Shown piece by piece: positions 11,644 to 12,301 of a stretch of DNA of 14,562 nt. Numbering within the stretch: the first letter of the stretch is position 1; each line of letters opens with the position of its first letter. The notes beneath the pieces were generated by a model. It was not told where the DNA came from, did no database searches, and saw nothing but the letters and a program-made list of their open reading frames with translations. The stretch comes from a virus. Made by a program: the position numbers and the translations under genes. Location of the stretch: the UHGV virus genome UHGV-0177146, one strand, 5' to 3'.

Positions 11644-11716
11644 CAGAAGACCAATTGCAGCAAACTTAATCTTATTCATCTGACACGAAATCGGACAAAG
11701 AAGAGATTTGGTCTGG
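11644..11716 (+). ncRNA. conserved structured intergenic element A (CAGAAGACC...CAGCAA...GGTCTGG family)
   Basis: 5' CAGAAGACCAATTGCAGCAAAC and 3' TTGGTCTGG form a 7-bp closing helix AGACCAA/TTGGTCT around a ~53-nt loop, between two tRNA genes. Confidence 0.4.
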
Positions 11717-11727
11717 TCATTAAGAAT

Positions 11728-11804
11728 TGCGGGTATAGAGAAAGGGCGTCTCACATGTCTCATTAGCATGGTATCGGCAGGTTCGACTCCTGCACCCGCC
11801 TCCA
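11728..11804 (+). tRNA. tRNA-Met or Ile2 (anticodon CAT), CCA encoded
   Basis: Acceptor TGCGGGT/ACCCGCC with an unpaired 1:72 position, anticodon arm CATGT-CTCATTA-GCATG, T-arm GCAGG-TTCGACT-CCTGC. Confidence 0.65.
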
Positions 11805-11810
11805 ATTTTG

Positions 11811-11870
11811 CAGAAGACCGTATTCAGCAACAAACTACTTTTTGCGGATAAAAGAAAAAACACGGTCTGG
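11811..11870 (+). ncRNA. conserved structured intergenic element B (same family)
   Basis: CAGAAGACCGTATTCAGCAAC ... ACGGTCTGG; closing helix AGACCGT/ACGGTCT around a ~40-nt A-rich loop. Confidence 0.4.
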
Positions 11871-11881
11871 CAATGTATTAA

Positions 11882-11958
11882 GGTTAGGAAGCACATAAGG
11901 TATGTGCGGTCGCCTGTTAAGCGAATGGCACAGGGTTCGAATCCCTGACTAACCGCCA
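11882..11958 (+). tRNA. tRNA-Asn (anticodon GTT), CCA encoded
   Basis: Acceptor GGTTAGG/ACTAACC, D-arm GCAC-ATAAGGTA-GTGC, anticodon loop CTGTTAA, T-arm CAGGG-TTCGAAT-CCCTG, G73. Confidence 0.8.
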
Positions 11959-11967
11959 AATTTAAAT

Positions 11968-12055
11968 GTGTCGTTATCCCGTAGATGGTAGCGGTGGGGA
12001 CTGTAAATCCCTTGTCATTGAGACTCGGTAGGTTCGACTCCTACACGGCACACCA
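11968..12055 (+). tRNA. tRNA-Tyr (anticodon GTA), class II with long variable arm, CCA encoded
   Basis: Acceptor GTGTCGT/ACGGCAC, anticodon arm GGGGA-CTGTAAA-TCCCT, ~15-nt variable arm, T-arm GTAGG-TTCGACT-CCTAC, A73; 85 nt. Confidence 0.8.
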
Positions 12056-12060
12056 ATAAA

Positions 12061-12137
12061 GGCTATGTAGTTTAACTGGAGAAAATACTCCCCTGTCACG
12101 GGAGATGATGTGAGTTCAAGTCCCTTCGTAACCGCCA
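12061..12137 (+). tRNA. tRNA-Asp (anticodon GTC), CCA encoded
   Basis: Acceptor GGCTATG/CGTAACC (one mismatch), perfect anticodon arm CTCCC-CTGTCAC-GGGAG, G73. The T-stem is poorly paired, so this could be a degenerate copy. Confidence 0.6.
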
Positions 12138-12224
12138 AATTATAATAAGTATTTCAAAATGATGTTTTGAGAGGGCTATTTAGCCCCTCCCTTAAAGAGT
12201 TCTTACGAGTATTCTTTAAAGGAG

Positions 12225-12301
12225 CAGAAGACCAAATTCAGCAAGTACGTATGAAATTTTCAAGCCAATTTAATTTTGAAAAAATTTAAAACTTGGTCTG
12301 G
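12225..12301 (+). ncRNA. conserved structured intergenic element C (same family)
   Basis: CAGAAGACCAAATTCAGCAAG ... CTTGGTCTGG; closing helix AGACCAA/TTGGTCT around an AT-rich loop. Confidence 0.4.

Follow-up and report, generated by a model that had tools for sequence, protein, structure and literature searches.

Candidate Y RNA-like elements with a shared CAGCAA module beside a divergent Ro60-like protein gene in phage tRNA islands

The closest described relatives of the system considered here are the bacterial small RNAs YrlA and YrlB, which accompany the Ro60 protein Rsr in, for example, Salmonella and Mycobacterium smegmatis, and the phage Ro60-Y RNA pairs known for canonical TROVE proteins (both in Chen et al. 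2014, PMC4201824). In the Thermus phage phiLo, the protein phiRo60 is paired with the RNAs Yrl1 and Yrl2, which carry a CGAA motif, and binding of PNPase has been described (NAR 2025, PMC12135203; PDB 9KOP and 9L5Y). The role of Ro60-Y RNA particles outside animals is unsettled, and the partner protein of the present system still bears the Pfam label 'domain of unknown function' (DUF2828). The window analysed here is the whole 14,562-nucleotide (nt) stretch of UHGV virus genome UHGV-0177146; it belongs to a Felixounavirus (Felix O1-like myovirus) with 97% identity to Enterobacteria phage UAB_Phi87 and holds 19 tRNA genes, all on the + strand and spanning 11475-14473 (ARAGORN). Amid the first tRNA genes of this island lie four non-tRNA stretches, named E1 to E4 below, which are probably small non-coding RNA genes (approx. 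60-135 nt) of one modular family that docks on the Ro60-like ring protein encoded upstream. The evidence supports a system of the Ro60-Y RNA kind with an RNA signature of its own, widespread in phages and left unannotated. The features on which the argument rests are as follows.

9894-11309, + strand: gene for the Ro60-like ring protein, 471 amino acids (aa), with Pfam DUF2828 and a DUF7788 vWA domain; PHROG 850
11419-11448, + strand: predicted sigma-70-like promoter (TTGACA, 18 nt, TAAAGT with TG; consensus match, 10/12)
11644-11716, + strand: E1, 73 nt, closed by helix 11648-11654/11708-11714, AGACCAA/TTGGTCT
11811-11870, + strand: E2, 60 nt, closed by helix 11815-11821/11862-11868, AGACCGT/ACGGTCT
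12225-12301, + strand: E3, 77 nt, closed by helix 12229-12235/12293-12299, AGACCAA/TTGGTCT
12315-12446, + strand: E4, 132 nt, the YrlA-like member, closed by helix 12319-12325/12438-12444, AGACCGT/ACGGTCT

The four elements had been proposed at these coordinates by the original prediction, made from the sequence alone, and exact matches to both end blocks bear them out. On the + strand, CAGAAGACC-N5-CAGCAA matches exactly at 11644, 11811, 12225 and 12315; with up to three mismatches, the window yields one extra match, at 8670 on the minus strand and within a coding region, against a shuffle expectation of 0.42, and five matches are reached in 0 of 200 shuffles. The 14.5-kb window contains the 3' block GGTCTGG exactly four times (11710, 11864, 12295 and 12440), each occurrence closing one element, a number reached in 6 of 200 shuffles. 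The consensus as originally typed carried one base in excess and matches nothing, the true spacer between CAGAAGACC and CAGCAA being 5 nt. The proposed AGACCNN/NNGGTCT stem stands, as does the co-variation of AA with TT and of GT with AC, but the two positions described as unpaired do form pairs, numbers 6 and 7 in a 7-bp stem. Four further sites had been listed as related copies (at 9091, 12549, 13635 and 14178); these are not members, because the N-U-W-CAGCAA module is absent from each. The first is unstructured (z +0.65), the site at 13635 forms a plain hairpin with a U run after it, and those at 12549 and 14178 fall within two other structured RNAs (12447-12595 and 14143-14238).

E1, between tRNA-Glu and tRNA-Met, has the spacer TTG, CAGCAA at 11658-11663, a short hairpin as its interior and a G at 11715. 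E2, between tRNA-Met and tRNA-Asn, has the spacer ATT, CAGCAA at 11825-11830 and a G at 11869 (fold z -2.6). The corresponding features of E3 are ATT, 12239-12244 and 12300, and those of E4 are TTA, 12329-12334 and 12445. In E1, E2 and E3 the variable module is a small hairpin, and for these three the view that the loops are unrelated holds; the interior of E4 is predicted to fold as a circularly permuted tRNA mimic. Here an anticodon-arm-like hairpin (12350-12366) is followed by a T arm (12371-12387, GAAGGTTCGATTCCTTC), a 7-bp 'acceptor' closed by a tetraloop (12388-12405) and a D arm (approx. 12408-12422). Among Felixounaviruses the 'acceptor' exists in compensatory versions (ACTCGGC/GTCGAGT, ACACGTT/GGCGTGT and ACCCTTC/GAAGGGT). 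None of E1 to E4 is called as a tRNA by ARAGORN or by Rfam RF00005 at threshold, E4 giving a weak match over 12338-12388 (22 bits; gathering score 29). From the predicted 11419 promoter, the putative transcription unit runs through tRNA-Pro, tRNA-Glu, E1, tRNA-Met, E2, tRNA-Asn, tRNA-Tyr, tRNA-Asp, E3 and E4, and a scan found no + strand terminator-like site between that promoter and the next strong promoter at 12845. The elements fill tRNA-sized slots 6-12 nt from the adjoining tRNAs.

The Ro60-like gene ends 335 nt before E1. Its product matches DUF7788 (E 4.6e-43), DUF2828 (E 1.8e-28) and phrog_850, an 'RNA-binding protein' family (E 1e-182); there is no match to Pfam TROVE PF05731 or vWA_Ro60 PF25045, and NCBIfam holds no model for it. 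An AlphaFold2 model built with 32 homologues (pLDDT 84.6, pTM 0.85) predicts a Ro60 fold, that is, a HEAT-repeat ring with a C-terminal vWA domain bearing a MIDAS (metal-ion-dependent adhesion site), the residues of which (D279-x-S281-x-S283, T349 and D381) are invariant in the 32 homologues. In a Foldseek search of the PDB, the 12 best matches were all Ro60/TROVE proteins aligned over the full length (E 1.7e-8 to 1.5e-6, TMq 0.40-0.65); they come from Thermus phage phiLo, Xenopus, human and Deinococcus (Rsr), and the best are 9KOP and 9L5Y. An hhalign comparison with a true TROVE phage protein gave a probability of 78% over 86 columns only. At 97.7% identity, the protein is, judging by sequence, the orthologue of Bas63 gp130 (bas63_0130), which the PhageMaP preprint describes as Ro60-like by structure and as countering the 'ppl' defence; the preprint guesses that 'some tRNA genes' downstream are Y RNAs and identifies none. 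All four elements are present and unannotated in Bas63, one of them under a probably spurious 50-aa coding sequence (CDS). In the Bas63 record (MZ501086, locus L194 14749-15023), bas63_0137 and bas63_0138 are tiny minus-strand 'hypothetical protein' CDSs that lie over E4 and the structured RNA after it, and they are probably annotation artefacts of unrecognised RNA genes. Directly upstream of the Ro-like gene is a DUF5681 protein gene (phrog_4114, 9441-9812) with its own promoter-like site, a gene pair kept in Bas63 as bas63_0129/0130.

The DUF2828 clade is found in 710 of 50,697 phage genomes (~1.4%), and the constant module of the elements recurs on the gene's strand in ~240 loci with homologues down to 28% identity, including Felixounavirus, mycobacteriophage, Listeria and Vibrio phages and contigs of metagenome-assembled genomes (MAGs). 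A motif search in related phages, one of the checks suggested originally, finds the four elements in unchanged order in 27/27 retrieved Felixounavirus loci. Where the protein is 29-40% identical, the geometry is kept and the helices are wholly different (TGAGCAC-TTA-CAGCAA...GTGCTCA; TGAACGC-TTA-CAGCAA...GCGTTCA; AAGACCC-CCA-CAGCAA...GGGTCTT). For these comparisons, a scanner that accepts a CAGCAA only if the 7-mer at a fixed distance upstream of it has its perfect complement 20-250 nt further on was run with offset, strand and letter-permutation controls; it took the place of a covariance model because interiors measure ~20 to >200 nt and joining the ends gives a model that is unsearchable against real sequence. 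Across 78 viral loci (29-48% identity), 86 of 335 same-strand CAGCAA sites pair at the 3-nt spacer, compared with 1-22 at other spacers and 4-9 on the opposite strand, while the other 59 letter arrangements of CAGCAA give at most 10 (median 4). In 80 independent genome or MAG loci (33-42% identity), there are 107 matches versus 2 on the opposite strand, with 59 of the 80 positive.

Aligning the copies and testing the stem for covariation, another check proposed at the outset, likewise favours a paired helix: double-sided changes occur at all seven pairs in 77 cores (231 cells versus 59 in shuffles), a set that was preselected for pairing, so that the offset and strand controls constitute the real test. 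A non-circular test comes from an IMG/VR scan with AGGATNNTTACAGCAA-N25-55-ATCCTG, a pattern that fixes five of the seven pairs only; in 116 of its 120 matches the two unconstrained pairs are complementary. Features that the scanner does not demand emerge from 97 distinct elements. The helix is preceded by A (68%) or U and begins with A or U, then G (93%), then R; the spacer reads N, U (97%), A or U (94%) and leads into CAGCAA, which is followed by ~9 G-depleted bases; and a G stands after the 3' strand in 96%. Since helices with this W-G-R start and otherwise different sequences are found throughout the 97 elements, AGACC/GGTCT is the form that a general W-G-R-N4 helix takes in one lineage. 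The four elements of the window agree with the family pattern, the sole departure being the G at the W position of the E1 spacer TTG. Among Felixounaviruses the two end blocks are essentially invariant and the interiors drift or are swapped outright; where only one side of the helix has changed, most cases are G.U wobbles and one is an A.C mismatch. E1, which is kept in all 27 loci, exists there with two unrelated interiors and with G.U variants in its stem.

Across the family, element length ranges from 44 to ~260 nt (median ~70), and most members are short hairpins of 50-70 nt without a tRNA-like domain. When that domain is defined as a T arm, a loop-closed acceptor and a D arm entered via the end helix, it is present in E4 and in ~20% of the family and lacking in E1-E3; a T-loop with an E4-like fold is found in the same ~20% of elements and in 37 of 121 positive loci, and the E4 layout recurs in unrelated phages. 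Against the Rfam YrlA model, relatives of E4 score 39.1 (E 4e-5), 29.6 and 24.7 bits, all below the gathering score of 69, and the matches are confined to the T arm, the closed acceptor and the D arm. Hairpins that resemble parts of a tRNA, a category that takes in T-loop-like as well as anticodon-loop-like hairpins and is not anticodon mimicry alone, are present in 31 of 184 elements versus 2.7 +/- 1.7 in shuffled interiors. Several short elements carry 5-bp/7-nt anticodon-loop-like hairpins with the loops CUUUUAA (three times), CUCUUAA and CUGUUAA. The idea that the closing helix imitates a tRNA acceptor stem with U8 was tried and dropped, the invariant U being at position 9 and the registers misfitting. 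Four elements, in four loci, enclose a complete, non-permuted, ARAGORN-callable tRNA (Thr, Met, Phe and Pro).

L086, 3734-3833: constant module around a whole tRNA
L142, 103-199: constant module around a whole tRNA
L162, 590-695: constant module around a whole tRNA
L174, 3649-3748: constant module around a whole tRNA

The elements occur in two contexts, beside the gene and within tRNA arrays, and in the window these coincide. A same-strand element lies within 1.5 kb of the gene in 52 of 75 viral loci. Up to nine copies with different interiors occur per locus, and one stretch has nine canonical elements in tRNA-sized slots amid 35 tRNAs. In mycobacteriophage Archie, the 'Ro-like' gene is followed by three elements and then a terminator; in Listeria phage LMTA-148, a promoter is followed by three elements, the gene and, downstream, RtcB, an RNA ligase whose gene is a neighbour in 15 of 158 loci. 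In loci L241 (3606-4127) and L207 (534-1055), six elements, no two with the same helix, follow one another head to tail at intervals of exactly 4 nt; no tRNA lies between them, and two more matches are found just upstream. RNA excision therefore cannot always rely on adjoining tRNAs. As a separate observation, LMTA-148 (NC_024787, L316 1427-1978) has a match to ROOL RNA (90 bits, E 2e-17; gathering score 99.1) ~650 nt upstream of its three elements and DUF2828 gene; tRNAs surround the match, RtcB is encoded 1.3 kb downstream, and several structured RNAs, large or small, cluster there with RNA-repair genes.

On this evidence, the Y RNA-like architecture suggested at first, with a constant protein-binding stem and variable effector loops, has comparative support. 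That support comes from the constancy of the module across partners only 28-48% identical, with a freely covarying helix and unrelated interiors; from the adjoining gene, whose twelve best structural matches are Ro60/TROVE; and from the permuted tRNA-like domain, typical of YrlA, in about one-fifth of the elements. The constant module would be built from both ends, as an A, the 7-bp W-G-R helix, N-U-W, single-stranded CAGCAA, the G-poor linker and the G after the 3' strand, and would frame a variable module that is a small hairpin in E1-E3 and the permuted tRNA mimic in E4. The elements would be co-transcribed with the phage tRNAs from the predicted 11419 promoter and, since they sit in tRNA-sized slots, might be released through RNase P, cutting the following tRNA at its 5' end, and through 3' trimming of the preceding one, to accumulate as stable RNAs. 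Gene linkage, protein fold and analogy suggest that the constant module may be the docking site of the 9894-11309 ring, giving Ro60-Y-RNA-like particles. After the pattern of the described Ro60-Y RNA systems, the variable module could then tether the ring to tRNA-recognising or RNA-processing host factors, or act as a decoy for them; conceivable targets are exoribonucleases like PNPase (tethering as in RYPER particles), RNA-repair enzymes like RtcB and tRNA-targeting defence nucleases, and either activity might benefit the phage in infection.

Several results weigh against that reading. No tested member reaches the Rfam YrlA or Y_RNA threshold, and the docking motif differs from the GGUCCGA and GNCGAA motifs of canonical Y RNAs. 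A sequence profile of the protein against the PDB reaches Ro60 at a non-significant E of 0.47, the likeness being at fold level only. The strict scanner finds no element within ~4 kb in 40 of 161 gene loci, and 78 of the 120 pattern-only matches have no DUF2828 gene in the retrieved stretch. Finally, the PhageMaP preprint reports that gp130 alone, whether from a plasmid or expressed by T7, rescues T7 from ppl, so that the phage's own RNAs are dispensable for the ppl phenotype.

The last two results also favour the strongest rival, a tRNA-island RNA family that is independent of the DUF2828 protein and serves as decoys or sponges for tRNA-targeting nucleases or tRNA-modifying enzymes, the gene being nearby since both favour tRNA islands. 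In 70 of the 78 gene-less stretches there are tRNAs at a distance of up to 1 kb, all in the orientation of the element (634 versus 0 in the opposite one); arrays such as the nine elements amid 35 tRNAs, as well as interiors that mimic tRNA parts, fit the same picture. We nevertheless regard this explanation as unlikely. Elements are still present beside the gene in 66 of 99 DUF2828 loci that are free of tRNAs. The other 42 of the 120 pattern-only matches do have the gene, always on the same strand (42/42) and at a median distance of 399 nt, a co-occurrence of 35% compared with the ~1.4% base rate. At least two of the gene-less stretches belong to contigs that encode the protein elsewhere, and the Ro60-Y RNA precedent accounts better for a shared constant module than does a decoy alone.

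The tRNA-sized slots 6-12 nt from tRNAs in one promoter-driven unit could also mean that the elements punctuate a tRNA precursor, steering its cleavage by RNase E, RNase III or RNase P as spacers and then being degraded. This is improbable given the elements beside the protein gene where there is no tRNA nearby and the head-to-tail arrays 4 nt apart; moreover, most junctions of the window's own tRNA island lack an element, and an invariant hexamer, flanking A and G, compensatory interiors and tRNA-like domains are not expected of disposable spacers. Less probable again is that the elements act in cis and not as trans-acting RNAs, being operators in the DUF2828 mRNA, within its leader or trailer, through which the protein regulates its own gene. 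Many loci do have them between promoter and gene or 30-400 nt past the stop codon, but two promoters and two tRNAs intervene between gene and elements in the window, copies number up to nine with different interiors, elements occur in tRNA arrays kilobases from the gene, and Archie's three lie after the gene and before the terminator. DNA-level repeats, whether targets of recombination or homing endonucleases or miniature mobile elements, are in keeping with the GIY-YIG homing endonuclease genes that are common neighbours in tRNA arrays and with interiors apparently swapped between related phages, but are very improbable on the extreme strand bias with respect to the gene and the tRNAs (107 versus 2; 634 versus 0), the conservation of CAGCAA on one strand only, the pairing kept between fully different helix sequences and the one-sided changes that are mostly G.U and so workable only in RNA.

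The docking of a modular RNA family on the Ro60-like ring thus stands as the favoured reading, and a bolder extension of it may be entertained, one that we hold to be possible but doubtful. The phages concerned (Felixounavirus, P100/A511-like Listeria phages, KVP40-like vibriophages, cluster L mycobacteriophages, and Campylobacter, Staphylococcus and Enterococcus phages) might share an unrecognised ribonucleoprotein system of tailed phages in which a divergent Ro60 ring (DUF2828; Bas63 gp130) is armed with interchangeable RNAs that mimic parts of tRNAs and are directed against host nucleases, in effect a programmable anti-defence device housed in tRNA islands. Its RNA modules would resemble a tRNA body, an anticodon arm or in some cases a complete tRNA, and in that way trap, decoy or redirect tRNA-targeting defence nucleases or enzymes of RNA decay and repair. 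Apart from that proposal, the DUF2828 clade, whose carriers include therapeutic and model phages, gains candidate RNA partners with a defined docking motif, and the family accounts for unannotated gaps and some spurious small open reading frames in phage tRNA islands. The published guess on Bas63 Y RNAs is sharpened, in that the candidates are the spacers and not the tRNAs, and the ppl phenotype of gp130 makes a role for the RNAs directly testable. The family is suitable for Rfam and for phage annotation pipelines.

Other structured regions of the island were noted along the way. After tRNA-Asp, an 87-nt gap (12138-12224) holds three hairpins (z -4.2) and has a full or partial match in 27/27 Felixounavirus loci. 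Directly after E4, the 149 nt of 12447-12595 are closed by a 24-bp inverted repeat (TAATTATCTTTGTAGATAAG... / ...CTTATCTACAAAGATAATTTA; z -5.85); 20 of 27 Felixounavirus loci have the region and the divergent ones lack it, so that it may be a structured RNA that was inserted or is optional. The region 12771-13076, kept in 27/27 loci, may by its sequence be a phage tmRNA-like element: positions 12923-12958 (GCAAACGACAATGTTTTTCTGGCAGTAGCTTGATAG) would encode ANDNVFLAVA and two stop codons, which closely resembles the tmRNA tag (ANDENYALAA in Escherichia coli). The Rfam model tmRNA_permuted scores 29.5 bits over 12771-12955, short of its gathering score of 47, and fits well at the resume codon; by ARAGORN, a related locus (L020) has a permuted tmRNA and the window has none. 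Two tRNA-free gaps of ~240-250 nt (13154-13391 and 13482-13735) are conserved among Felixounaviruses, and 13298-13372 gives a weak match to the tRNA-Sec model (23 bits) that is not called by ARAGORN. Between tRNA-Thr and tRNA-Val, 14143-14238 is a stem-closed 96-nt RNA (AGAGGUC...GACCUCU; z -3.2), with 96-98% conservation even among Felixounaviruses in which the Ro-like protein shares only 83-89% identity; the helix of this RNA starts A-G-R as in the elements, but UGAAAG replaces CAGCAA and no G follows the helix.

Stable non-tRNA products are known from another phage tRNA cluster, that of T4, in which the 'species 1' and 'species 2' RNAs (rnaC and rnaD) come from the same precursor as the tRNAs; we know of no Ro60-like partner for them. 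For the present elements, Rfam 15 holds no model, at gathering or permissive thresholds, in the window or in six plus two related loci; YrlA (RF02553) and metazoan Y_RNA (RF00019) give no match in the window even at E<=10, nor do the elements of Archie and LMTA-148 match Rfam YrlA. Literature searches, with subscription-only papers outside their scope, returned no description of CAGCAA-type RNAs. That Chen et al. 2014 might already cover the DUF2828 clade was considered and, as far as the accessible part of that paper goes, rejected, the ET08/McGee-like type being a Pfam TROVE protein with a GNCGAA-type RNA and no CAGCAA. The 'Ro-like' protein of cluster C mycobacteriophage McGee is Pfam TROVE plus vWA_Ro60; upstream of its gene is a YrlA-type RNA with GGCCGAGAG/GGCCGAAGG and a GNCGAA-type motif, and no CAGCAA-type element was found near the gene. 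Each protein clade would therefore have its own RNA motif.

Set beside the known systems, the elements share much with bacterial YrlA and YrlB: several small RNAs per locus lie beside the gene for a Ro60-fold ring, their 5' and 3' ends are paired with a conserved 5'-strand motif adjoining the helix, often at least one RNA per locus has the T arm, loop-closed acceptor and D arm seen in E4, and RtcB is a frequent neighbour, as in the rsr-yrlBA-rtcBA operon. They differ in the motif, which is N-U-W-CAGCAA after a 7-bp W-G-R helix instead of GNCGAAN0-1G, in that most lack a tRNA-like domain and many lie within tRNA arrays, and in the partner, which is a divergent Ro60-fold clade of DUF2828/DUF7788 type in place of Pfam TROVE/vWA_Ro60. 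With phiRo60 of phiLo and the YrlA of ET08 and McGee, they have in common a phage Ro60-fold protein with Y-like RNAs adjoining; those proteins are recognisable as TROVE and go with a CGAA-type RNA motif, whereas the motif of the window's clade is different and that clade is found in many more phage lineages. As in metazoan Y RNAs (hY1-hY5, RF00019), there are several paralogues per genome, and a conserved terminal helix (the protein site in the metazoan RNAs and putatively here) is combined with a variable module that recruits, or in the phage case would recruit, other factors. In contrast to the metazoan RNAs, with which they share no sequence similarity, the phage elements have a variable helix with no bulged-C GGUCCGA and, not being RNA polymerase III transcripts, would be processed from tRNA operons.

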